10,260 bases of DNA from a virus (Duplodnaviria; Heunggongvirae; Uroviricota; Caudoviricetes), in IMG/VR virus record IMGVR_UViG_3300005660_000003, positions 1 through 10,260 of that record; one strand, written 5' to 3'. The position numbers and the translations under genes are program-made. A model generated the notes under the pieces. That model made no database searches. It had not been told where the DNA came from and was given only the letters and a program-made list of their open reading frames with translations. This document shows positions 1 through 10,260 of the stretch, in pieces (position 1 is the first letter of the stretch; each line of letters opens with the position of its first letter).

Positions 1-7
1 GTTCTGT
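1..7 (+). other. R' box (GTTCTGT) of an upstream attC truncated by the window edge
   Basis: GTTCTGTGC (1-9) is the exact reverse complement of GCACAGAAC (597-605), the R'' flank of the next attC. Confidence 0.75.
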
Positions 8-159
8 GCCACCTTAGGTACATTACTTCCATCCTCCATGCAGTCTGCCCACATATTTGGCTTAAGTGTAAACCCATCCCAACCTATCGGGCGTTTATAC
101 CCTGTCTCTGTTTTTACTACGTCGTAATTCAACCCTAAACCATATGGAACTCTTTGCAT
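1..159 (-). CDS. Candidate 3'-truncated ORF (MQRVPYGLGLNYDVVKTETGYKRPIGWDGFTLKPNMWADCMEDGSNVPKVAQN...), runs off the window
   Basis: Hand translation: 53 codons with no stop from ATG 159 to position 1. The frame is open back to 357. No clear SD. Not in the track because it has no stop in the window. Confidence 0.3.
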   Translation of the reverse strand, partial: MQRVPYGLGLNYDVVKTETGYKRPIGWDGFTLKPNMWADCMEDGSNVPKVAQN

Positions 160-595
160 GACTGACTCTTTCTCTGAAGATTTATCGATTGCGGCACGTT
201 TCATGTGGAAACACCGAAACGAACCACAGTATTGGACATGGGAATCATTAACAGACCTAAACAAAGTCACAGACTCCCCTAATTTAAACCATGCTGTAGC
301 ATGGAACATTATTACGGTACTCGAAGGAAAGGGGTTCTTATTATCCTTTCCAGAATTTCAAAAAGACGGGCAAATTATCAAGTACCCATTTAAACTTCAT
401 CTTGGTGATCTAAAGGCGTGGCGTCGTATTAAACGATCCCCTTCTTGTTGCACATACTTAATTAATCTATGGGAAGATTTTTCGCCCAAACTCTATGCGT
501 TTATTATTGGTATCTTTTCATTAGCAATAGCATCTGTCATCGTTTACGCCCTACAACGCTACATCGATATCAAATGGCCAGCACCACCAAACTAA
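158..595 (+). CDS. Cassette 1 gene, conventional orientation; hypothetical 145-aa protein with a C-terminal transmembrane helix
   Basis: Stop TAA at 593-595 directly abuts the attC R'' (597-605), as in classic cassettes. Hydrophobic stretch LYAFIIGIFSLAIASVIVYAL. Confidence 0.75.
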   Translation: MTDSFSEDLSIAARFMWKHRNEPQYWTWESLTDLNKVTDSPNLNHAVAWNIITVLEGKGFLLSFPEFQKDGQIIKYPFKLHLGDLKAWRRIKRSPSCCTYLINLWEDFSPKLYAFIIGIFSLAIASVIVYALQRYIDIKWPAPPN

Positions 596-598
596 AGC

Positions 599-689
599 AC
601 AGAACAAAACGATGCACGCCGAGCAACGGTGGTTAGGTTATTGCTGTGGTTTGGTTACCTCCGTTGCCGGGTGATCGTCAGCGTTATTT
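599..689 (+). other. attC site 1 (91 bp)
   Basis: ACAGAAC-aaaac-gat[G]cac[G]ccg[A]gcaacgg ... ccgttgc-cgg-gtg-atc-gtcagc-GTTATTT. Confidence 0.9.
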
Positions 690-857
690 TGAAGACCCGG
701 CAGACCACCGAAACCAATGACGCGGAGTCATGATTTCAAGGCGTGGACCGCTGCCCGACTTCTTTCGCCCAAACAAAAACGCTGTCGTCCGAAAGTGGAG
801 ACAGAACCGACAGCCATAGGCTTGTGTGTACTCCACATCTTTCTGCACATGAACCAT
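684..857 (-). CDS. Cassette 2 inverted ORF, 57 aa (MVHVQKDVEYTQAYGCRFCLHFRTTAFLFGRKKSGSGPRLEIMTPRHWFRWSAGSSK); missing from the ORF track
   Basis: Hand translation. SD-like GAGAGGG just upstream of ATG 857. TAA stop at 686-684 lies in the bottom strand of the attC1 R' box. One CxxC motif. Confidence 0.6.
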   Translation of the reverse strand: MVHVQKDVEYTQAYGCRFCLHFRTTAFLFGRKKSGSGPRLEIMTPRHWFRWSAGSSK

Positions 858-872
858 GATTGCACCCTCTCA

Positions 873-963
873 AAATAACAACAAGTTGTACGCCGAGCAG
901 CGGGCCACCGTGACCCGCTTTACAAAGTGTCCCGCCGCTGCCGGGTAAACTTTGTCGTTCTAC
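873..963 (+). other. attC site 2 (91 bp)
   Basis: AAATAAC-aacaa-gtt[G]tac[G]ccg[A]gcagcgg ... ccgctgc-cgg-gta-aac-tttgtc-GTTCTAC. Confidence 0.9.
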
Positions 964-1244
964 GGATGCCGAACCAGTGAATACGTTTCGACGCTTGCTG
1001 AATACGCTTCCGCAATCCGTTTTGCAAACTTCTGACTCCTCGTTACGGTGCTTTGATCCACTACCGCCGACCATTGCCCGTTTCCGAAATCAAACCAAAA
1101 CCATTCCCCCTTGCTTTTATCTACAACTGCATACAACGTCAGTGGAGACAAAAACCGACCACGCTCAAGCCAACGGCCCCGCGCGTCCATCGCAAGCACC
1201 GCAGAACAATCAGATGCAGCCGAGCCGTCAACGTCGTTCGTCAT
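960..1244 (-). CDS. Cassette 3 inverted ORF, hypothetical 94-aa protein; N-terminus encoded by attC3
   Basis: SD AAGAAAGG 9 nt before ATG 1244, both inside the attC3 loop. TAG stop at 962-960 lies in the attC2 R' box. Aromatic-rich beta-like core (YAVVDKSKGEWFWFDFGNGQW). Confidence 0.7.
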   Translation of the reverse strand: MTNDVDGSAASDCSAVLAMDARGRWLERGRFLSPLTLYAVVDKSKGEWFWFDFGNGQWSAVVDQSTVTRSQKFAKRIAEAYSASVETYSLVRHP

Positions 1245-1305
1245 ATCCTGAAACCTTTCTTATGCAATGCAGGCTCGTCGGCCCGGCTGATCTGAGTCGT
1301 TATGC
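1201..1305 (+). other. attC site 3 (105 bp)
   Basis: GCAGAAC-aatca-gat[G]cagccg-a-gccg ... cggc-c-cggctg-atc-tgagtc-GTTATGC. Confidence 0.88.
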
Positions 1306-1842
1306 AGATACATCTTGACTCGGATACTGCGAACACAATTCACAGCGAAACTGACCACGTTCCTCGTCACTCAAATCCTTGCCGCAGTCTCCACATGTCC
1401 CATACCGCGACTTCTTGCACGTCGGGCAGTATCCAGCTCCGCGACCAGCACAGCCCTGACAGCCCTCCGCGTCTGGAAGCAGCGTTACAAAATCAGCCGC
1501 CATCCTGCGAACGGCGTTCGTAATCGCTTCGCGATATCGCTGCTTGTACTCATCGTTCATCCACCCGGCGACGACTTCAGTCAGCACTGATACGAGTCGT
1601 GTTTCTCCGCAGTTGGCTTTGTACGCTCCGTCTGCTGGCGGTGTCTCCAGTTTCCCATGAGGCACATCAATTAACTGCTCTCGCAGGTCTCGCATTGCTG
1701 CCGCAATTTCGTATTCCTGTGCGTCCATTGCGATCCTGATGGCGGCATCGAAGCTCTTAGCCACAAGTCTGGCTTTGGGCTTGCAGCTCGTCAGGCTATA
1801 CAGCGAAAACAGTAATCTGCCAATATCTTTTTGCGCACTCAT
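1300..1842 (-). CDS. Cassette 4 inverted ORF B, ~180 aa: UVR (UvrB/UvrC-type) motif plus four C-terminal CxxC pairs
   Basis: Start reassigned to ATG 1842, which forms an ATGA overlap with the upstream stop. AMDAQEYEIAAAMRDLREQL fits the UVR motif. CQGC, CPTC, CGDC, CELC. TAA stop at 1302-1300 lies in the attC3 R' box. Confidence 0.75.
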   Translation of the reverse strand: MSAQKDIGRLLFSLYSLTSCKPKARLVAKSFDAAIRIAMDAQEYEIAAAMRDLREQLIDVPHGKLETPPADGAYKANCGETRLVSVLTEVVAGWMNDEYKQRYREAITNAVRRMAADFVTLLPDAEGCQGCAGRGAGYCPTCKKSRYGTCGDCGKDLSDEERGQFRCELCSQYPSQDVSA

Positions 1843-2177
1843 GACTGGAACCCCACAAACGGACGGTTGCAATGATCACACCTGCCTGACGGCAGCCTGT
1901 AGCCAATACCGCAGGTCTGGCACACATACCCAGCCAGATCCTGAATCTCTTCAATCTCACGAAATGCTGCCCCCGCATGCACTGCTGGCTGTAACACTTC
2001 GCCGCTCGCAATCTCAAGCAGTCTGCGACGCATTACTGCGTGTTCTCGCATTAGCCTGTCAACATCTGCGAGCTTGACAAACTTGCCTGTTTTCGACTCC
2101 ATCACAAGCGAGCACTGATACAGCGGAAGCTGCATAACAATGCAATCAACCGGAGTTGCCGACGATGCGTTTTCCAT
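1839..2177 (-). CDS. Cassette 4 inverted ORF A, ~112 aa, C-terminal zinc ribbon (CQTC...CDHC); N-terminus encoded by attC4
   Basis: SD GAAAGG 8 nt before ATG 2177 inside the attC4 loop; alternative TTG start at 2183. Stop overlaps the start of ORF B. Confidence 0.7.
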   Translation of the reverse strand: MENASSATPVDCIVMQLPLYQCSLVMESKTGKFVKLADVDRLMREHAVMRRRLLEIASGEVLQPAVHAGAAFREIEEIQDLAGYVCQTCGIGYRLPSGRCDHCNRPFVGFQS

Positions 2178-2222
2178 GATCAAAACCTTTCACCGGCAAC
2201 CCGGTTATTGCAAGCGTTCGCC
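2132..2222 (+). other. attC site 4 (91 bp), canonical structure
   Basis: GCATAAC-aatgc-aat[C]aaccgg[A]gttgccg ... cggcaac-ccggtt-att-gcaagc-GTTCGCC. Top-strand extrahelical C and A correspond to bottom-strand G and T, as in classical attC sites. Confidence 0.93.
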
Positions 2223-2254
2223 GCCACACTCTTCTCTTCAATCTCTCTCTTCAT
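2180..2254 (-). CDS. 24-aa peptide MKREIEEKSVAANACNNRVAGERF translated through the right arm of attC4
   Basis: Strong SD TAGGAG 7 nt before ATG 2254. TGA stop in the attC4 loop overlaps TTG 2183 and lies 2 nt before ATG 2177. Confidence 0.5.
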   Translation of the reverse strand: MKREIEEKSVAANACNNRVAGERF

Positions 2255-2340
2255 TTTCTTCTCCTAAATAAAAGTTTTCAAATTCTGCACTAAAATTCCC
2301 GAATTCTTCGGACAAATCAAGCCCCTCATGCGATTCGCTT

Positions 2341-2430
2341 ATGGGATTTTTTCGTTTCACTCTGGGGATCGACATGGAGATTCTCGTCATCATTTGCTTG
2401 CTCATCTGGAATTACGTTTCAAGCGATTAA
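2341..2430 (+). CDS. Small hydrophobic peptide, 29 aa (MGFFRFTLGIDMEILVIICLLIWNYVSSD) or 18 aa from ATG 2374
   Basis: Hand translation. GGGGA precedes ATG 2374. Its TAA merges into the SD (TAAGGGG) of the next peptide. Confidence 0.45.
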   Translation: MGFFRFTLGIDMEILVIICLLIWNYVSSD

Positions 2431-2439
2431 GGGGTTACT

Positions 2440-2520
2440 ATGGCCGCAATACAGTTTCTCTTTGGTTTGGCCCTCGGGGTCTTTGTCCTTACCATAACGA
2501 AAGAAAAGAAACGACAATGA
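2440..2520 (+). CDS. 26-aa single-TM peptide with basic tail (MAAIQFLFGLALGVFVLTITKEKKRQ)
   Basis: SD TAAGGGG 5 nt upstream. Its stop overlaps the next start (ATGA 2517-2520). Confidence 0.55.
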   Translation: MAAIQFLFGLALGVFVLTITKEKKRQ

Positions 2521-2720
2521 ATTTCGCAAACCTTACACCAATGCCGAGCTCTTCAACTAATCAAAACGTTTTCATCAATCCTGCGTTCGTCACTCACGTT
2601 GGCAGTGATGCTGGCGGTACAACGATCATCTTCTTTAGCGGTGGCACGTCCACCACAATTGATGACACTCCGGCTCGTGTAGTCGAAGAATTGATTAAGG
2701 CCAGCAATTCATCTGTGTGA
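2517..2720 (+). CDS. 67-aa small beta-rich protein, FlbD-like pattern (true start probably 2517, not 2328)
   Basis: MNFANLT...VFINPAFVTHV...TTIIFFSGG...IDDTPARVVEEL resembles the FlbD-type pattern by eye. ATGA coupling to the upstream peptide. Confidence 0.6.
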   Translation: MNFANLTPMPSSSTNQNVFINPAFVTHVGSDAGGTTIIFFSGGTSTTIDDTPARVVEELIKASNSSV

Positions 2721-3034
2721 ACTGGCACATCAATTTTTGTCCCATTGTCTAGATGAGCAAAACAACTTTCACGCCTCCACTTTTGCCAGTATCCTTCGTT
2801 GGTGATTGCCACAATTCTACTCGGATCCACCACGCAAAAGGTATGTTCCACTTCGTGGACCTTCGCTTCTTCTGGTGCCTGCCCAAATTCATGGAATGTG
2901 CTTAGGTCATCATTCACATGATATTTCCCCCTAAACACTAAAAGCGGCGAACAAAGCGTTGAACCCGAGCTACCGGTGTCGGGTTCTGGGGTGGTTTGGG
3001 TTCCGGCGGCAGCCGGGTTAACTTGGTCGTTCAT
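2594..3034 (-). CDS. Cassette 5 inverted ORF (146 aa from ATG 3034, reading through attC5; alternative GTG start at 2917); C-terminal half FlbD-like pattern
   Basis: ATG overlaps the TGA of the upstream phage gene. SD AGGGGG lies 9 nt before in-frame GTG 2917. VVDPSRIVAI...CFAHLDNGTKIDV...DELLALIN. Confidence 0.65.
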   Translation of the reverse strand: MNDQVNPAAAGTQTTPEPDTGSSGSTLCSPLLVFRGKYHVNDDLSTFHEFGQAPEEAKVHEVEHTFCVVDPSRIVAITNEGYWQKWRRESCFAHLDNGTKIDVPVHTDELLALINSSTTRAGVSSIVVDVPPLKKMIVVPPASLPT

Positions 3035-3035
3035 A
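2946..3035 (+). other. attC site 5 (90 bp), distal end of the array
   Basis: GGCGAAC-aaagc-gtt[G]aacccg[A]gctaccg ... cggcagc-cgggtt-aac-ttggtc-GTTCATA. Confidence 0.88.
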
Positions 3036-3516
3036 AATATTCCTCTATCTGATCTAAGTCAGAAATTTTAATGTTAAAACAATCACACTTTACTTTAAAA
3101 TGTGTACCTTCTTCTATTTCATCCTTTTTAAGGAATTGGGCTTTCTCCATAAAAGCTACTACGGGGATTATACCCAAACAATAAGCTGTGGATAAGTCGT
3201 TGGTTATTCTATAAAAAGCATAATGACTACACTCTTTTTTCTTCACTTGGTACGCTGCAACTGTACAAGAATAGGAATCCAGTGGTCTCGAAGAGCACCT
3301 CTTAGCTTTAATATCAATACACCCTATTTTTGCGTGAGCAACATCATAATTATAAGAGTCTACTAGCTCTCCGCCATAAGTGTCGAGAAAAAGTTCCTCA
3401 GCAACCATACCAGCTAGCTCCCCATCACTACAAATCTTTTTACTATTTTCACCGATTTTGCTTGCTCTGGCTTGAGCTTTGCTCAAGACAGCTTCAGAGA
3501 CTTCTAATTCTGTCAA
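3031..3516 (-). CDS. Phage PD-(D/E)XK restriction-endonuclease-fold protein (putative)
   Basis: Motifs GMVAEE, NYD and CIDIKAK fit an E...D...(D/E)xK active site. TTG start with SD GGAGGAGG overlaps the recA stop. Confidence 0.6.
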   Translation of the reverse strand: MTELEVSEAVLSKAQARASKIGENSKKICSDGELAGMVAEELFLDTYGGELVDSYNYDVAHAKIGCIDIKAKRCSSRPLDSYSCTVAAYQVKKKECSHYAFYRITNDLSTAYCLGIIPVVAFMEKAQFLKKDEIEEGTHFKVKCDCFNIKISDLDQIEEYL

Positions 3517-4598
3517 GCTTCCTCCTCCCCATCTTCTTCCGGAGGAACAAAATCATAAGATATTGAATACTTTTCTATAAAATAATCCTTTATAATCTTT
3601 TGAAAAAGTTCCAAGTTTTCTTCTATTACAGCTACTGCTTTATCTGACCCCTGAGCTCTTATTTCTGTACCATCTGGTAACATAAAATAATACCACGCAC
3701 CCTTAGTGGTTAACAATCCTGTTTCTGGTAAAACTTCTAGGGCCTCCATAGCCCAATAAATACCCTCACCAAACCTAAGATAAGAATTAATAGGATTTTC
3801 CTTACTAACATAAGGGGCAAGTTTCTTATTATACGGCATTTGCCATTTAATTAGTTGGCCCTTCAGGCTTTCACCGTCTTTATTATTTAGTCTACTACCA
3901 TCCCAATCATACGGTTTGTGGCGAGCCTCTAAAACTATATCACATTCATATTCAAGTTTTACACCACCATCTGGCACTAATGGATCACCATACCCGGAGG
4001 TATTTGTGATAAAGTGTTGAATACCTATTACAATAGATCTAGTAGTACGAACAAGATTACCTATCTTTTTACAAAAATCCGCATTAAGTTTTGGGGTAGT
4101 GTCTCGCCTATTACCCTTAATGTCAATGTCGTTAAGAGTATCTTCTGGAATTATTTTAGAAAATGAATCTATTACATAAACTGCCCCTTTATACTTAGGA
4201 AGACCCATCATATCTTTAATGGTTTTGTATATTTTATCTCCAGATAAAACGGGGACACCCTCCTGAGATCTTAATATTAAAAATTTGGGATTATTTATAT
4301 CTAATCCTTTAATTTGAAAGTATTTTTCCCCAAGTAATCTACATTCAACATCGGCATAAATAACATATCTTCCTTGAGCTAGGGCGTTGGTCGCTATTTG
4401 CATAGCACACATCGACTTCCCGAGTTTAGGCGGGGTCCTAATAAGAACCAAACTTCCCTCTGGGATTCCACCTCCAAGTTTAGCATCTAGGGAAGGACCA
4501 ACAGATACAACGTATGGACTTGCTTTTTCTTTTGTAATTATACTAGCAGCACTTTGGAATAAGTTTTTATCTATAAGTGGTTTTTTGGCTTTAGCCAT
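3513..4598 (-). CDS. recA: RecA/UvsX-family recombinase (phage type)
   Basis: SLDAKLGGGIPEG, P-loop variant TPPKLGKS, YADVE, Walker B VYVIDS, DGGVKLEYECD, C-terminal KGAWY and QG motifs, acidic tail; 361 aa. Confidence 0.9.
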   Translation of the reverse strand: MAKAKKPLIDKNLFQSAASIITKEKASPYVVSVGPSLDAKLGGGIPEGSLVLIRTPPKLGKSMCAMQIATNALAQGRYVIYADVECRLLGEKYFQIKGLDINNPKFLILRSQEGVPVLSGDKIYKTIKDMMGLPKYKGAVYVIDSFSKIIPEDTLNDIDIKGNRRDTTPKLNADFCKKIGNLVRTTRSIVIGIQHFITNTSGYGDPLVPDGGVKLEYECDIVLEARHKPYDWDGSRLNNKDGESLKGQLIKWQMPYNKKLAPYVSKENPINSYLRFGEGIYWAMEALEVLPETGLLTTKGAWYYFMLPDGTEIRAQGSDKAVAVIEENLELFQKIIKDYFIEKYSISYDFVPPEEDGEEEA

Positions 4599-4954
4599 TA
4601 ATTCTTCTTTCTGAAGAGTGGTGAAGTTTCACATGGGGTGACTTGTGGGTTTTGTTTAGCTATGTGCTCTCTTAGGTTTTTCTCATTTGTAAGCCGAGCC
4701 TGCTCGACCTCTATTAAATCTGGCAACTTTTTAGCATATAAAGACCAACACCAAGATTCTTTTCTTATTGTGTTCCATATAGCTTCCTCACTATAGGCCC
4801 TGAATAATTTTGCTGCTATTATAGTTTGCTGTTGGTACTCCTTTTTATATTTTGGTAATCTCCAAAACGCCTCCGGAAGAGTTATCCCTTGTTTTTCATA
4901 CTTTCTCTTTATTATATAAGATACTAGCATTTCTCTCTGGGATGATTCCCCCAT
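4598..4954 (-). CDS. Hypothetical phage protein (118 aa)
   Basis: ATG start; TAATG overlap with the recA start; in operon. Confidence 0.75.
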   Translation of the reverse strand: MGESSQREMLVSYIIKRKYEKQGITLPEAFWRLPKYKKEYQQQTIIAAKLFRAYSEEAIWNTIRKESWCWSLYAKKLPDLIEVEQARLTNEKNLREHIAKQNPQVTPCETSPLFRKKN

Positions 4955-5236
4955 TTATTCACTCCTGTAAATTCCCCTGTGCTCATCAGAGGCCTGAGTT
5001 GGTTGTGTGGGAGCTGGTTCCTTATCAATGTCTGCAGTCATTTGATAAACTTTTTGCCCATTCTTTAGGGTAATCTTAGAAGCACCCAACCTATTTGCTT
5101 TATTAGTTTTATCATAGATCTCTTTGATCAGAGCTTCTGACAAATCTAATTCTTGGGAAATTTCCGCAATACTTTTACTTCCGGCGAAACTACTAATATA
5201 AAGCTCGTCTGCCGGGTTCAATTTTTTTCGACTCAT
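4955..5236 (-). CDS. Hypothetical protein with possible N-terminal helix-turn-helix
   Basis: SIAEISQELDLSEALIKEIY is HTH-like. ATGA overlap with the upstream gene. Confidence 0.65.
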   Translation of the reverse strand: MSRKKLNPADELYISSFAGSKSIAEISQELDLSEALIKEIYDKTNKANRLGASKITLKNGQKVYQMTADIDKEPAPTQPTQASDEHRGIYRSE

Positions 5237-5559
5237 ATTTGTCCGCTCGCTTGCATTGCTTGTGTTGTTAGTTTGTAAAGCCCCTCATGCTTAGTAGTTA
5301 AATACTTGACATAATTTTCAAAAATATCCCTAGTAACCTTAATAAAGGTTGGATTAATTAAACTTTTATTCATCTTGGTTTCATGATGAATTGGTTTAAG
5401 CCCCTCTACTCGTATGTAGTGCTTAGTGTTATCGTCCGACACCACCTCTTTTGCAACTATATTGTTCGCCACCTTTGTTTCATCACCATTGATATCATAC
5501 AAATAGTAAAAACTTTCATTGTGTTTTCCACCATAAATAAATTCTACTTGATCTACCAT
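5233..5559 (-). CDS. Hypothetical phage protein (108 aa; start reassigned to ATG 5559, MVDQVEF...)
   Basis: ATG lies 1 nt after the upstream stop (5561-5563). The track start at 5664 would overlap another gene by ~100 nt. Confidence 0.7.
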   Translation of the reverse strand: MVDQVEFIYGGKHNESFYYLYDINGDETKVANNIVAKEVVSDDNTKHYIRVEGLKPIHHETKMNKSLINPTFIKVTRDIFENYVKYLTTKHEGLYKLTTQAMQASGQI

Positions 5560-5560
5560 T

Positions 5561-5788
5561 TTAAATTTTTCTCTTATAAAAGACTCTTGGTTTACACATA
5601 ATTTTATTTTCATCAATAAATTCGAAATAATATTTATCATTACCAGAAAGCTTGGGGTACCCAATGAAGGTTTCTATTATTTCTTTACCACACACACACT
5701 GGACCTTAAAACTTACAATCTCTTCTCCACCGGAGTCTATGGCATACAACAACTCTTCTTGACACTTACTACAGGTTATAACGCTCAA
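5561..5788 (-). CDS. Small zinc-ribbon protein (CSKC...CVCG)
   Basis: Cys motifs; TTG start in a TTGA overlap with SD GGGGG. Confidence 0.7.
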   Translation of the reverse strand: MSVITCSKCQEELLYAIDSGGEEIVSFKVQCVCGKEIIETFIGYPKLSGNDKYYFEFIDENKIMCKPRVFYKRKI

Positions 5789-5997
5789 GTGGCCCCCAAT
5801 TCTTTAATTGCCGCTAATATAGCGGCAACTTTTGCCGCCACTTCTTCGGGCGAGCCCGGCTTTATTGTAATTAAGAAATTTTTTAGTCCAGCTTCCCGTT
5901 GGGCTTTTAGACCCACACTTTTTCCTAATTCTCCAGTGGTTTCTACCTCATGAACATATACGGATATAGATATTATTGCTTGATGGGCTTTACTCAA
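5785..5997 (-). CDS. Hypothetical protein (70 aa)
   Basis: TTGA overlaps at both ends; in operon. Confidence 0.6.
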   Translation of the reverse strand: MSKAHQAIISISVYVHEVETTGELGKSVGLKAQREAGLKNFLITIKPGSPEEVAAKVAAILAAIKELGAT

Positions 5998-6200
5998 AGG
6001 GATTTTCTTTCTACTAATTCATATTCTATAATGTCTATTTTTGACGCAGAAATATTATTATTATCTTTACAAAGCTTTCTTACTCTGCGGGCTTCAGCTA
6101 GTTCTTCAAACACTTTGGCGGACTTTTGTTTTGTTGACCACCTTTTGTTTTTGGTAAAAAAGTTATTTCCGATACGTTCTCGTATCATGTATACGTTCAC
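5994..6200 (-). CDS. Hypothetical protein (68 aa)
   Basis: GTG start in a GTGA overlap with the upstream stop. Confidence 0.65.
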   Translation of the reverse strand: MNVYMIRERIGNNFFTKNKRWSTKQKSAKVFEELAEARRVRKLCKDNNNISASKIDIIEYELVERKSL

Positions 6201-6523
6201 AATATTCCTTTCTCAATAAAATCCCGCATTTGTTTATTTGTATTTATGGCCTGAATCTTCTGCGTTCTGGATTGTGCATTTAATTTTTCTTCTGCCCCAA
6301 CACCAAAAGCCCGCTCCCTAGATAGTGGATTACGACGGTTGTTTAATTCTAGTAGTGAACCTACCGTGCGTGGGTCACACAGCTTAGAAATAATAGGCCC
6401 AGAAATAAGACGTTCTAAATCCCCATTACAGATAGGGCACTTTTCGTAGATTTCTGTATGATTTTGCAAGAATTCTATATCTCCACAAGATTCGCAGAGG
6501 TATTCTTTAGTTACTAGTGCCAA
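6197..6523 (-). CDS. FmdB-family zinc-ribbon putative regulatory protein
   Basis: EYLCESCG...EKCPICNGDLERLIS matches the FmdB-type CxxC-CxxC pattern. SD AAGGG before TTG. Confidence 0.75.
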   Translation of the reverse strand: MALVTKEYLCESCGDIEFLQNHTEIYEKCPICNGDLERLISGPIISKLCDPRTVGSLLELNNRRNPLSRERAFGVGAEEKLNAQSRTQKIQAINTNKQMRDFIEKGIL

Positions 6524-6557
6524 TTTAATTTTCCCTTAATTGAATTGTTTTTCTTAT

Positions 6558-6570
6558 TACTGTTACAGTA
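6558..6570. promoter_or_regulatory. Intergenic palindrome TACTGT-T-ACAGTA, possible operator
   Basis: Perfect 6-bp inverted repeat in the 68-bp gap upstream of the FmdB-like gene. Confidence 0.3.
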
Positions 6571-6591
6571 GGCATCTAAAATAGAAACGTG

Positions 6592-6927
6592 TTATGAAAC
6601 AATACAACCTTTTTCAAGATTCCCAATATAATCCGGTCCTTCGCCGTAAGATATAGCTATATTACGTGTAGCCCATAACGGTTGAAGATTTGTATAATGG
6701 AAGCAAATTTTCTGTTGCTCGGGATCTGAAAGATCAAAAGATGCACAAGGTTTTATATGATCTAAGTGCCATCCTTTGTCTCCGTGATTTTTCCAAGTCA
6801 TACCCTGAGTAAACTTTGACTCAATGTGTTCAATAAAAAATGATATATTACAACTTAATAAATTAAACGTTAAGTCCGATTTTGAGGCTTTATGATTTTT
6901 TAAGATTGCTCGTATTCTTTCTCTCAT
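6592..6927 (-). CDS. HNH-type (endonuclease VII-like) homing endonuclease domain, short and possibly N-terminally truncated
   Basis: [40 protein letters not shown] are hallmark motifs of this viral endonuclease family. No SD before the ATG. Confidence 0.75.
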
Positions 6928-6948
6928 CTTCTATAATATACTTCTCTG

Positions 6949-6962
6949 TTTTTGATCAAAAA
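6949..6962. promoter_or_regulatory. 14-bp perfect palindrome TTTTTGATCAAAAA overlapping a weak -35-like element upstream of the HNH gene
   Basis: Directly read. On the minus strand: TTTTGA-N17-TATTAT, then ATG 5 nt later (possible leaderless start). Confidence 0.3.
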
Positions 6963-6970
6963 ATTTATTT

Positions 6971-7576
6971 TCACTGAGTTTCCAGCTCTGCAAGGTACTT
7001 GAGGCAGATCTGAGACCACGTTTCAAATTCATCGATTTGCCCCACCAATTCTGACGGTGGTGCGAATCCTGCGTTTATCATCGACTTTTCACGGGGCTGA
7101 ACTTTGGGTTTGTCCAAATTGAAAATATGAACTATCCCAAGATGAACTTTCCCAACTTCTGTTTCATCGTCGTTGATTAACCCAACGCACTTTTCTGTCC
7201 AGTCTGCCTGAATCTCCACCTCTTCCTCAATCTCCCGTTTCATTCCTTCAAGATACGGAGACTGCACACCATCGAGGTCCAGTGTTGAGACATGGCCGCC
7301 GACGCCGACCGATCGCTTGGCGTGCAACCGCGCTTCTCCCTGAGCCGTTCCACGCTGATAGAAGAAGATCTCGCCGTTGCAACGAAACACGCAGTACGGG
7401 ATCAGCTGCTTGAAGGTGGGATCCTGCTCCATCTCAGGTCGAGGCCGATAGCTGGCGTGTTGCGGATCCAGAATCACCTGCAGGTAACGCTCGATGTCGC
7501 TGCTGAATCCCTGAAAATGACCGACCTGAAGAAAGACGGGAGTTGGAATGACCAAAACACGCTCATTTAACGACAT
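6971..7576 (-). CDS. NUDIX-family predicted phosphoesterase (YmaB/COG4112-like), cellular-type sequence
   Basis: [20 protein letters not shown], Nudix box [28 protein letters not shown] clearly higher than the flanks (spot counts 40-63% vs 23-30%). Confidence 0.88.
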
Positions 7577-7982
7577 ACTTTACTCCATCTAAAATCAAAG
7601 AGCTTATGCTTCTATGGTCTACTTGACGAATATTGTTGGTTGGCAAATCTAAATCAATCACTATACTTCTTCCCAAAATTGGTTCGCTCTTAATAAAATG
7701 CCCACGCAAGGATCTGTCAACTCCGTCCCCTTTAAGAAAAGTAACCGTAAATGGGCGAATTCCAGCCCCCATTAATTTTTCTACCACATGAGTGATGGGG
7801 CACTTTTCTTCATGGTTAAATTCGTCTGCTGACCACACATTGCCTATTTCTTCAAAGTAGTCGAGTGGGCACTCATATTCTTTTTGCCCACCTAGGTCTA
7901 ATACGGTGATAGCATCCTCAGACACCTTTGATATCTTGTAATAGCCCATTTCGCACACTATATCATTTTCTTTAATCTTCAA
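7563..7982 (-). CDS. Hypothetical protein with C-terminal WYL-like/DUF2693-type SH3 barrel (tentative)
   Basis: [17 protein letters not shown]...VIDLD...[13 protein letters not shown] pattern. SD TAGGAG before TTG. Confidence 0.55.
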
Positions 7983-7992
7983 GCTTGTTCTC

Positions 7993-8760
7993 CTAAAATT
8001 TAATTCCAGTTAATGATCCAATATATGTTTCACCCATTTGTTGGTATGGCGTTGTAGTCATTTTTAATCCTTCAAACACAGGTTTTTCATTAATCCATAT
8101 CCCCTTACTTTTATCTATAAATAAAATCGCCGCCAATACATCATGCATAGCTTTAGTTGGATCTAATTTATTAAAAAATGCCCGCACCCTTTGGTTCTCA
8201 GGAACCCATATCTTTTCAAGATGAGCCTTTGTAAACCCATGACAAACATTTTTACCAACAAAGTATTTAGACTTTATGTTTTCGGAATCTACAATTCTTT
8301 TAAAATCTTCTCTAGCACCAGAAGGATTGAATGATTGTACAGAGTGAAGATTTTTGAATTTTTCTAAAGGTCTGATGCTTTTGGGGCAATGCCCACCCTG
8401 AAAGAAGAGTTCGTTACAAGATAATTTATTTCCAATGTTTTTATGTGGGCCAATTATTAAGGCCCGGTCTACAGTTAGATCTAGCTCAGAAAGATCTTCT
8501 GTTGGCAATAAGCAGTTTCCAGAAAAATCTTTATGCTTACCATAAGAAAACTTTTCGTTATATTCCACATCTTTTGAATTATAAAGCTTGGGATATGAAA
8601 TATCGTATGAATTTATTATAGTGGTCAATATCTCATTTTGCTGTAGATGGCCGGGAGATAAACCAATTATATTTGGAACAGCATTATTTTCAATTAAGTA
8701 CGCTAAAGCAATAGCATCATCTGGATCATGTCCTAAGTCTGTATGTAGTAATATTTTCAA
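7993..8760 (-). CDS. Inosine/uridine-preferring nucleoside hydrolase family protein
   Basis: N-terminal TDLGHDPDDAIAL (DxxxDxDD Ca-binding motif), SFNP and MHDVLAA motifs. Confidence 0.75.
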   Translation of the reverse strand: MKILLHTDLGHDPDDAIALAYLIENNAVPNIIGLSPGHLQQNEILTTIINSYDISYPKLYNSKDVEYNEKFSYGKHKDFSGNCLLPTEDLSELDLTVDRALIIGPHKNIGNKLSCNELFFQGGHCPKSIRPLEKFKNLHSVQSFNPSGAREDFKRIVDSENIKSKYFVGKNVCHGFTKAHLEKIWVPENQRVRAFFNKLDPTKAMHDVLAAILFIDKSKGIWINEKPVFEGLKMTTTPYQQMGETYIGSLTGIKF

Positions 8761-9155
8761 AACTTATACCTCTTACTGGTGTCCGAAGTTGACTTGTCAA
8801 CTTCTATTGTTTCTAGTATATCCTTACTTAACCTGCTTATATTAAAGTCACCCCTACCTAATTCTAAAATGTGCGTAGATGAAGCCACCACCTTTTTCGC
8901 CGCGTCTAGCGGGGCATCCGCATCATACATTTTACCAAATTTATTCGGCTTTAGGTTTTTGCTTCCTTCAGTGGCATCCCAAATTATTGGTATGATTTCT
9001 ACACCTATCTTTGAGCTGGCTGCGAATTTAGCAGCCATCTTATGATCCAAGGAAACAAATTTAATAAAACCCTCAGTTTTAGCAACTTCTTCTAAGGTTG
9101 AACGCAGTTCTGCGTAATCTTCGAATTCACGATCTATGGAAAGGGCCACTTTCAA
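8757..9155 (-). CDS. Degenerate SLOG-superfamily (DUF2493/YspA-like) protein
   Basis: MKV...REFEDY.EL, PIIWD, NKFGKMYDADA follow the DUF2493 pattern, but the GSR, GAD and RN motifs are absent. Confidence 0.5.
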   Translation of the reverse strand: MKVALSIDREFEDYAELRSTLEEVAKTEGFIKFVSLDHKMAAKFAASSKIGVEIIPIIWDATEGSKNLKPNKFGKMYDADAPLDAAKKVVASSTHILELGRGDFNISRLSKDILETIEVDKSTSDTSKRYKF

Positions 9156-9937
9156 GTTTTGTACCTCTTCATAATTTCTATTAGAAATGGATCACGCACA
9201 ATATCATTTTCATGAAACTCTACGTAACCCACATCTCTCATTCCATAAAATCTATCTACTGCATCATCTAGACCACAAAGTTCCCCTCTATTAAGTCTTA
9301 TATCTATTTGATCTGGGTCGCCCATAATAACTAGCTTACTGCCTTCCCCAATTCTAGATATAAAACTTTTCATTTCGCCGACTGTGGTGTTTTGACTTTC
9401 GTCTAGAATACATATACTTCCTATTGGATTACCAGTTGAGTCATATCTTCCGAAGGTAGTCCCCCTAATATAGTTAAGAACCACTTCTTTAATTATACCA
9501 TTTTCAGTTAGATATTTACACCCTTCTTTACCAACTAGTTTTACTATATTATCATAGAAATGAGCAAAGTGTACGGCAGTTTTGTCACTAACCTCTCCGG
9601 GCAAATGTCCGAGACCCTTACCGGAGGTAATTTCAACAATGGGCTTAGTAAGAAAAATTTGATCTATGTTAAAAGAGGTGTCCTTGACTATGTTTATGGC
9701 TGCCGCTAAAGCACAAATGGTCTTCCCCACGCCAGCAACACTACGAACAAAAGTTATACGATTATCTAATATAGTATTATACAAGTCTCTTTGTTTGTTG
9801 TTTTTAAACTTGAAGATCAGCTTGGGTTGAGGACGTGTTGGAACATATTCTTGACTTGGGGCCTCTATTGCTCTACCATGAGCTGTTACGTGACGAGTTT
9901 GTGTTGGTTTTGGTCTTTTTGTTCTATGTCTGGTCAA
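9152..9937 (-). CDS. phoH: PhoH-family ATPase (phage type)
   Basis: SVAGVGKT P-loop, LGHLPG, YIRGTTF, ILDESQN, SRIGEGSKLVIMGDPDQID, DIVRDP. Confidence 0.92.
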   Translation of the reverse strand: MTRHRTKRPKPTQTRHVTAHGRAIEAPSQEYVPTRPQPKLIFKFKNNKQRDLYNTILDNRITFVRSVAGVGKTICALAAAINIVKDTSFNIDQIFLTKPIVEITSGKGLGHLPGEVSDKTAVHFAHFYDNIVKLVGKEGCKYLTENGIIKEVVLNYIRGTTFGRYDSTGNPIGSICILDESQNTTVGEMKSFISRIGEGSKLVIMGDPDQIDIRLNRGELCGLDDAVDRFYGMRDVGYVEFHENDIVRDPFLIEIMKRYKT

Positions 9938-9947
9938 GGTTATTCCT

Positions 9948-10259
9948 TTAAGGAAAGGGGTTGGTTATTATATTAGTAAACACTACTGGTGGTTTTAATT
10001 CACGGTCTTTATGTCTAACTAAAAGTTTAATATCTTTATATTTTCTAAAGTCTAGCCTTCGTTTGGCAAATTTTGTTTCGCATTCTTTTTTAAGCTTTAA
10101 AAAATCTACATCTGATATGTTGCTAAAATAATCGTACACATTCGCATCAAATTCAGTAGCGTAAGCCATAGCCAAAATGTGACTTTTACGCAAAGAAGCT
10201 GCGGGTTTAAAATCTGGCGAGGCTAATTTACTAAATAGTACAGGACTAGGAACCCACTT
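9948..10259 (-). CDS. Hypothetical protein, 5'-truncated by the window edge
   Basis: The frame stays open upstream of the track start at 10193 (KWVPSPVLFSKLASPDFKPAASLRK...). Its stop merges with the phoH SD (TAAAGGA). Confidence 0.7.
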   Translation of the reverse strand, partial: KWVPSPVLFSKLASPDFKPAASLRKSHILAMAYATEFDANVYDYFSNISDVDFLKLKKECETKFAKRRLDFRKYKDIKLLVRHKDRELKPPVVFTNIITNPFP

Positions 10260-10260
10260 T

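Follow-up and report, generated by a model that had tools for sequence, protein, structure and literature searches.

Clusters of attC sites without an integrase (CALINs) are known in virulent phages, with GTT-containing motifs at the array boundaries (Qi et al., 2023; PMC9892861), and cassettes also insert at secondary genomic sites (attG, consensus GWT), where they are expressed when they lie beside host expression signals (bioRxiv 10.1101/2022.09.11.507474). The locus described here occupies the start of the window, a 10,260-nt stretch that opens a linear IMG/VR phage contig of 117,774 nt, estimated by CheckV to be 67% complete. Like the phage CALINs just cited, it is a cassette-bearing attC array that lies in a phage genome and lacks intI, but it has 11 cassettes, compared to few attCs in each of the examples illustrated in that study. 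Also unlike those CALINs, it is mirror-oriented, with the longest ORFs on the attC bottom strand; its ORFs run through the attCs; and its terminus lies inside a phage stop/start overlap. As in attG insertion, the distal junction resembles attC × GTT recombination outside attI, but a simple insertion of this kind is fitted by the distal junction only, the proximal end having no matching boundary.

In class 1 integrons, the translation starts of ORF-11 and ORF-18 reportedly lie in attI1, a finding attributed to Hanau-Bercot in 2002. We propose that here, similarly, a start signal outside the cassette and beside the recombination point drives a cassette without its own start. In contrast to ORF-11 and ORF-18, this would occur at the distal end and on the bottom strand, with the signal provided by a phage gene overlap or a neighbouring cassette, and with an in-frame fusion through the attC itself. 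The arrangement has the hallmarks of ATGA coupling in phage operons (a 4-nt overlap, an SD inside the upstream gene, and recurrence of this overlap type in the operon), but differs from the usual case in that the downstream partner is a foreign cassette, which would be entered through a recombination hairpin.

The integrase-less array and its mobile cassettes

GC content is 46–58% across window positions 1–3029 and 31–42% in the genes from 3031 onward, all of which are on the minus strand and include those for a UvsX/RecA-like recombinase and a PhoH-like protein; that of the phage overall is ~35%. A second contig (L011), 100% identical to the phage contig over 11,034 nt, extends past its start and holds the full array, with 11 attCs detected by covariance model and 11 cassettes, followed by a GP88-family gene, an 88-aa gene, and genes for DnaB, a split Pol III alpha and SSB, all co-directional. 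The array sits between the 161-aa phage gene P0002 and the GP88-family gene, inside a co-directional recombination/replication operon. No tyrosine recombinase (PF00589) was found in the 117.8-kb contig, no integrase in the gene tables for 16 kb past the far array end, and neither attI nor intI at that end. With no tyrosine recombinase on either flank, the array is therefore a CALIN, and not a complete integron with intI and attI beside it, within the replication/recombination operon of a large activated-sludge phage.

A covariance model built from the window's own five attCs (match threshold E ≤ 1) delimits, all on the plus strand, attC1 (599–689; 86.4 bits), attC2 (873–963; 84.4 bits), attC3 (1201–1305; 70.3 bits), attC4 (2132–2222; 85.5 bits) and attC5, the distal-most of the array (2946–3035; 81.5 bits), with R″ GGCGAAC at 2946–2952 and R′ GTTCATA at 3029–3035. 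These five imperfect R″-L″…L′-R′ palindromes align with invariant AAC and GTT ends, and 12 of the 18 pairs in their consensus fold have compensatory changes. The first-pass annotation had noted no complementary attC in the 7.2 kb downstream of the junction, and the model likewise returned none at E ≤ 1 in 3036–10260. The whole 117.8-kb contig has one additional, solitary attC (33329–33419). It belongs to a solitary 310-nt cassette (G000:C1:33104–33419; L023 1276–1591) lying within a local GC-rich patch, whose attC scores 57 bits, whose R″ (AAATAAC) perfectly matches its start (G^TTATTT, the caret marking the crossover) and which is adjoined by a module-like TTAGGAGAAGAA.

The R″ 7-mer matches, in reverse complement, the opening 6 nt of its own cassette together with the preceding G at all 10 internal boundaries (9 perfectly, one with one mismatch); for attC5 this start is G^TTCGCC at 2216–2222. 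Since this complementarity rule is symmetric it cannot set orientation, and the window plus strand was assigned as the attC top strand because of bulge geometry and natural rearrangements (in contigs L008–L010 and runs X5 and X8). The bottom strands of attC1–4 fold to bulged hairpins with an extrahelical T and G/C on the 3′ arm, which corresponds to R″/L″. Extra bases on the 3′ arm are the canonical attC geometry, and the bulge layout of attC1–4 presumably agrees with that of attCaadA7. Free folding of attC5 did not give the canonical hairpin, despite its 81.5-bit model score. The array has a mirror orientation, in that the attC bottom strand, which is also the strand of the phage genes, carries its longest ORFs, the cassette-5 gene among them. 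The attC motif AACGACCAAGYTAACCCGG is present in 14 genome contigs (L034–L047). Because 11 of these are from Planctomycetota MAGs with attC arrays, the cassette pool, and perhaps the host too, is suggested to be planctomycete despite the 35% GC of the phage.

Cassette 5 (2217–3029, plus strand; 813 nt) is mobile. It occupies another array position in L008–L010, where it lies after a different cassette and before a different attC with both breakpoints inside GAAC (AA^C), and it has other proximal neighbours in X5 and X8, an attC1-like site being joined directly to it in X5 (contig joint 679 to 2213). It thus moves as a unit at the crossover and is bounded at G^TT, with an R″ complementary to its own start. 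The cassette ahead of it in L008–L010 has top-strand genes of 70 and 95 aa, and the open frame through attC5 there extends to a 201-aa product, P0004. Cassette 5 has only 5 internal differences between L008 and L011, and a synonymous/non-synonymous comparison was uninformative.

The contig start is itself informative. Positions 1–7 (GTTCTGT, plus strand) are the reverse complement of the attC1 R″ (ACAGAAC) and form the R′ of attC0, itself off the contig; L011 runs on into attC0 at window base 1. By the boundary complementarity, the contig therefore begins exactly at a cassette boundary. Two separate contigs, this one and a 75.7-kb JGI contig (L013), stop exactly at the G of the boundary, and in X8 attC0 is joined to cassette 5 rather than to cassette 1, so the assembly break probably marks a polymorphic crossover point.

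The distal junction and the phage ATGA overlap

The end of attC5 reads GTCG^TTCATAAAT, with G at 3029 and T at 3030. This distal G^TT is the array/phage boundary, as defined by a GC shift from 0.46–0.58 to 0.31–0.42 (about 52% to 37%) and by the point within GTTC at which the phage and L008 contexts of cassette 5 diverge. Because cassette 5 moved as a unit in L008–L010, with breakpoints inside GAAC, the distal end appears to be a genuine IntI-type crossover, and we infer that the junction was made by an integrase at a secondary GTT-type site.

An ATGA stop/start overlap on the minus strand (3031–3034) falls entirely to the phage side of this crossover and is also found at the end of the same gene in the array-less relatives L032/L033 and L030. 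Its TGA (3033–3031) ends P0002 (3031–3516, minus strand), a phage gene lying downstream of the UvsX/RecA-like gene (3513–4598) and whose orthologues (46–51% identity) hold the same position in relatives. Its ATG (3034–3032) opens P0001 (2594–3034, minus strand; 146 aa), which comprises the phage ATG, ~30 attC5-encoded codons and the cassette-5 body, and is stop-free across all of attC5; its predicted N-terminus is MNDQVNPAAAG…. An SD-like GAGG (3042–3045, minus strand) lies 7 nt upstream of this ATG, within the 3′ end of P0002. By sequence, the site hence has the elements of ATGA coupling: a 4-nt overlap, an SD in the upstream gene, and a real downstream frame with a homologue. Two claims of the first-pass annotation, that the array terminus is embedded in a phage ATGA overlap and that the last attC is open in the frame of the phage ATG, are thereby borne out.

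No family matches were found in Pfam or PHROGs for P0001, P0002 or the other through-attC ORFs. An Rfam search likewise gave no family, and BLAST of the flanking sequences was uninformative for both phage and plasmid records. The RNA fold of the junction was no stabler than shuffled sequence (z = −0.6), and so makes no case for a structural block or terminator.

We next compared array-less relatives, with RecA 64–75% identical. In L032/L033 (two contigs of one relative), a 137-aa gene (MKVIG…) begins at the ATG of the ATGA that closes the P0002 orthologue; in L030, the ATG of the ATGA is bypassed and the next gene begins 10 nt further on. The window phage retains an intact orthologue of the relatives' next gene (140 aa, MRTIG…; 54–59% identity, beginning at residue 1) 7.4 kb downstream, where it again starts in an ATGA. 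In L031, ~25 small genes (57–94 aa) occupy ~5.5 kb (9564–15075) between the P0002 orthologue and a 139-aa gene, and mark a hypervariable hot spot. Since L032/L033 start the next gene at this ATG, and the window phage has GAGG 7 nt upstream of it, the ATG at 3034 is an old phage start position within this insertion hot spot. Scans for closer matches were negative: neither P0002 nor the RecA-like protein, used as protein patterns against viral contigs, retrieved any relatives, and exact-pattern junction scans for an empty site gave nothing in viral contigs and only an unrelated AT-rich chance match in metagenome contigs, so that no array-less close relative emerged from these scans.

Runs carrying the stretch came from activated sludge, wastewater, sediment and rhizosphere in 16 studies. 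Contigs span the junction in three of the four runs examined (X5, X6 and X8), and none of the four has a loose contig end at 3029/3030. A contig from an RNA library bridges 2809–3828; RNA contigs of run X9 that end on either side of attC5 reflect only a gap in cover and were not counted as evidence. The RNA-library runs X8 and X9 (597–654, 3263–3305) showed ~19 G>A differences on the plus strand vs. 1–2 others, and 10 of the RNA-library differences cluster in attC1; DNA runs show mixed changes. Such a G>A excess would correspond to C>U on minus-sense RNA, by editing, damage or as an allele.

Reading frames through attC and leader modules

An exhaustive search with the P0001 body yielded a homologue, P0188, with 35% identity to P0001 over 133 aa, the attC-encoded part included. 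P0188 consists of a leader (MREENMKT), an attC-encoded stretch and a body; in its DNA (L051) an attC lies exactly over residues 8–37, preceded by an SD+ATG leader, and no Met follows the attC until residue 99. Where the two proteins are attC-encoded, their likeness may stem from constraint acting on the DNA hairpin and not on the peptide. L051 is from a related phage with a separate 4-cassette array (1005–2960), flanked by genes for a 275-aa protein and a PDDEXK nuclease. In this array each of the four attCs is read through from an upstream leader, and the proximal end also has no matching boundary.

We then compared three low-GC phage arrays (18 attCs) with arrays of the same attC type in Planctomycetota MAGs (27 attCs). 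The N-D frame is open through the attC in 15 of the 18 phage sites vs. 7 of the 27 in the MAGs (p = 2e−4), and an in-frame SD+ATG occurs within 60 nt upstream of 11 of the 18 phage attCs vs. none of the 27 bacterial ones (p = 3e−6). Moreover, each of the three phage arrays has its distal ORF opening close to the end of a co-directional phage gene, at −4, 0 or +9 nt relative to that gene's stop.

Five cassettes in L011 carry at their 5′ end a conserved, near-identical bottom-strand SD+ATG leader module, (T)TAGGAGAAA-N-TTATG (8768–8812, 11531–11575, 12100–12144, 13390–13434 and 14006–14050). The module ATG precedes the next attC's AAC by 33–36 nt and sets a frame in which that AAC is an Asn codon. 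In cassette 5, the module (2223–2267, minus strand; GGAG at 2261–2264, ATG at 2252–2254) reads across the crossover into attC4 and stays with cassette 5 in L008; the leader thus lies across the crossover from the gene served. The leader modules and the phage ATG at 3034 share a frame, a match expected by chance in 1 of 3 cases. The module is also present in a viral contig (L048, ~7075–7090). Separately, in an IMG/VR contig of 55% GC (L050, 3486–3577), the R′ box of the last attC visible before the locus ends likewise falls on an ATGAAC, behind which a frame of 109 aa is open.

Competing accounts and proposed expression of the terminal cassette

The reading that we favour, with a probability of about 65%, is that 3029/3030 is the distal G^TT end of an integrase-less 11-cassette array, and that the frame of the terminal cassette is opened by the phage ATG in the P0002 ATGA. 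Three other accounts bear on it. A sharp GC change at the junction, the location of the array at a contig end and an attC type otherwise known from Planctomycetota MAGs would all be expected if assembly had wrongly fused a bacterial integron array to a phage contig. The same junction, however, is present in at least 10 independent assemblies, which argues that it is no chimera: exact look-ups place P0001 beside P0002 in contigs of ENA, JGI and Logan assemblies that cover more than 8 samples and several years, contigs of 83.5 and 22.8 kb pass through the array into the phage replication genes, and the join falls exactly at G^TT. We consider the chance of a chimera negligible. Another account, from the first-pass annotation, held that the founding insertion cut a Met-Asn phage gene at codon 2, with the remainder beyond the far left end of the array and restorable by excision. 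In its favour, the ATG and AA come from the phage, relatives use the ATG to start a gene, and joining the far end in silico at L011 14497/14498 gives an in-frame GP88 (MNVGNN…). This was the sole in-frame phage gene among the joins of ATGAA to each AAC, the others giving readings of 39 and 70 aa that merely continue the first cassette's own ORF frame, or of 3–27 aa. We rejected the GP88 join as a coincidence. The 5′ end of GP88 is native, because its own YNLLNVG, which follows a TTG start with an SD, fits the family N-termini: an MN(V/I)G start is absent among the 120 listed GP88 homologues, nearly all of which have M-x(1–4)-LL or a close variant before (N/S)(I/V)G, and the Pfam match begins at residue 5. 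The join site, moreover, resembles the expected proximal boundary (GCAGAAC) only in the invariant AAC. Between the last attC and GP88 no 7-mer is within 1 mismatch of GCAGAAC, and the best have 2 mismatches, with no gene restored there; perfect copies at L011 15874 and 16457, within or beyond conserved phage genes and out of frame, were taken as chance. The far array end is thus without a recognisable cassette boundary, and array-less relatives read ATGAAA or ATGAGC at the junction instead of the predicted ATGAAC. Since the relatives' next gene is intact 7.4 kb downstream, no phage gene is split by the array. What survives of a founding insertion at a phage gene start is the real phage ATG and a plausible coupling; the split gene itself is largely refuted and, in our judgement, very improbable.

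A stronger objection to the favoured reading is that the ORF through attC5 could be an annotation artefact, the attC being transcribed but not translated, with the ATGA just the end of P0002 and the cassette gene either unexpressed or started at a rival GTG in the P0001 frame (2915–2917, minus strand). This GTG, which is codon V40 of P0001, has AGGGGG (2927–2932) 9 nt before it, in which a variant in L008 alters position 2931; the frame runs further upstream in another context (the 201-aa P0004), and gene callers simply take the first ATG; and a given frame is open across the attC by chance in ~26% of bacterial attCs. Against this, the SD+ATG leader of P0188 precedes its attC, beyond which the first Met is residue 99; phage arrays are strongly enriched for the leader architecture; and GAGG precedes the phage ATG. 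We therefore regard an artefact as unlikely, if a good deal less so than a split gene, and translation through attC5 from the phage ATG as plausible on these sequence features, with 3034 the probable translation start.

In the favoured reading, bottom-strand ORFs would be read through the attCs in the frame where the R′ AAC is an Asn codon. The ribosome site, the ATG and ~10 leader codons would come from across the crossover, at the 5′ end of the neighbouring cassette, so that each cassette would supply its neighbour's start. The terminal cassette has no neighbour to supply a leader, and its frame would for this reason be opened by the coupled phage start codon, the ATG in the P0002 overlap with GAGG 7 nt upstream. 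Ribosomes ending P0002 would restart there, translating attC5 as the N-terminus of the cassette protein. More tentatively, and with slightly less than even odds in our view, the cassettes may be circularly permuted genes, each composed of an attC-encoded N-terminus, a body, and the SD, ATG and leader of the next gene, with the crossover inside the coding sequence. Since each cassette would carry the next gene's leader, neighbours would exchange leaders at every rearrangement, and the array would be expressible only when its distal end is docked on a co-directional phage start codon, which here would be that of the P0002 ATGA. The attC would then act as recombination site, linker peptide and coupling point.

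Cassette order differs among natural populations, but the junction with the phage does not. With the array set into a phage operon at a stop/start overlap, phage transcription and a phage start codon would replace Pc and attI. The locus would thus show how promoterless, start-less cassettes can be expressed in a virus without an integron platform, and offers a concrete, testable case in which a DNA recombination hairpin is probably translated.
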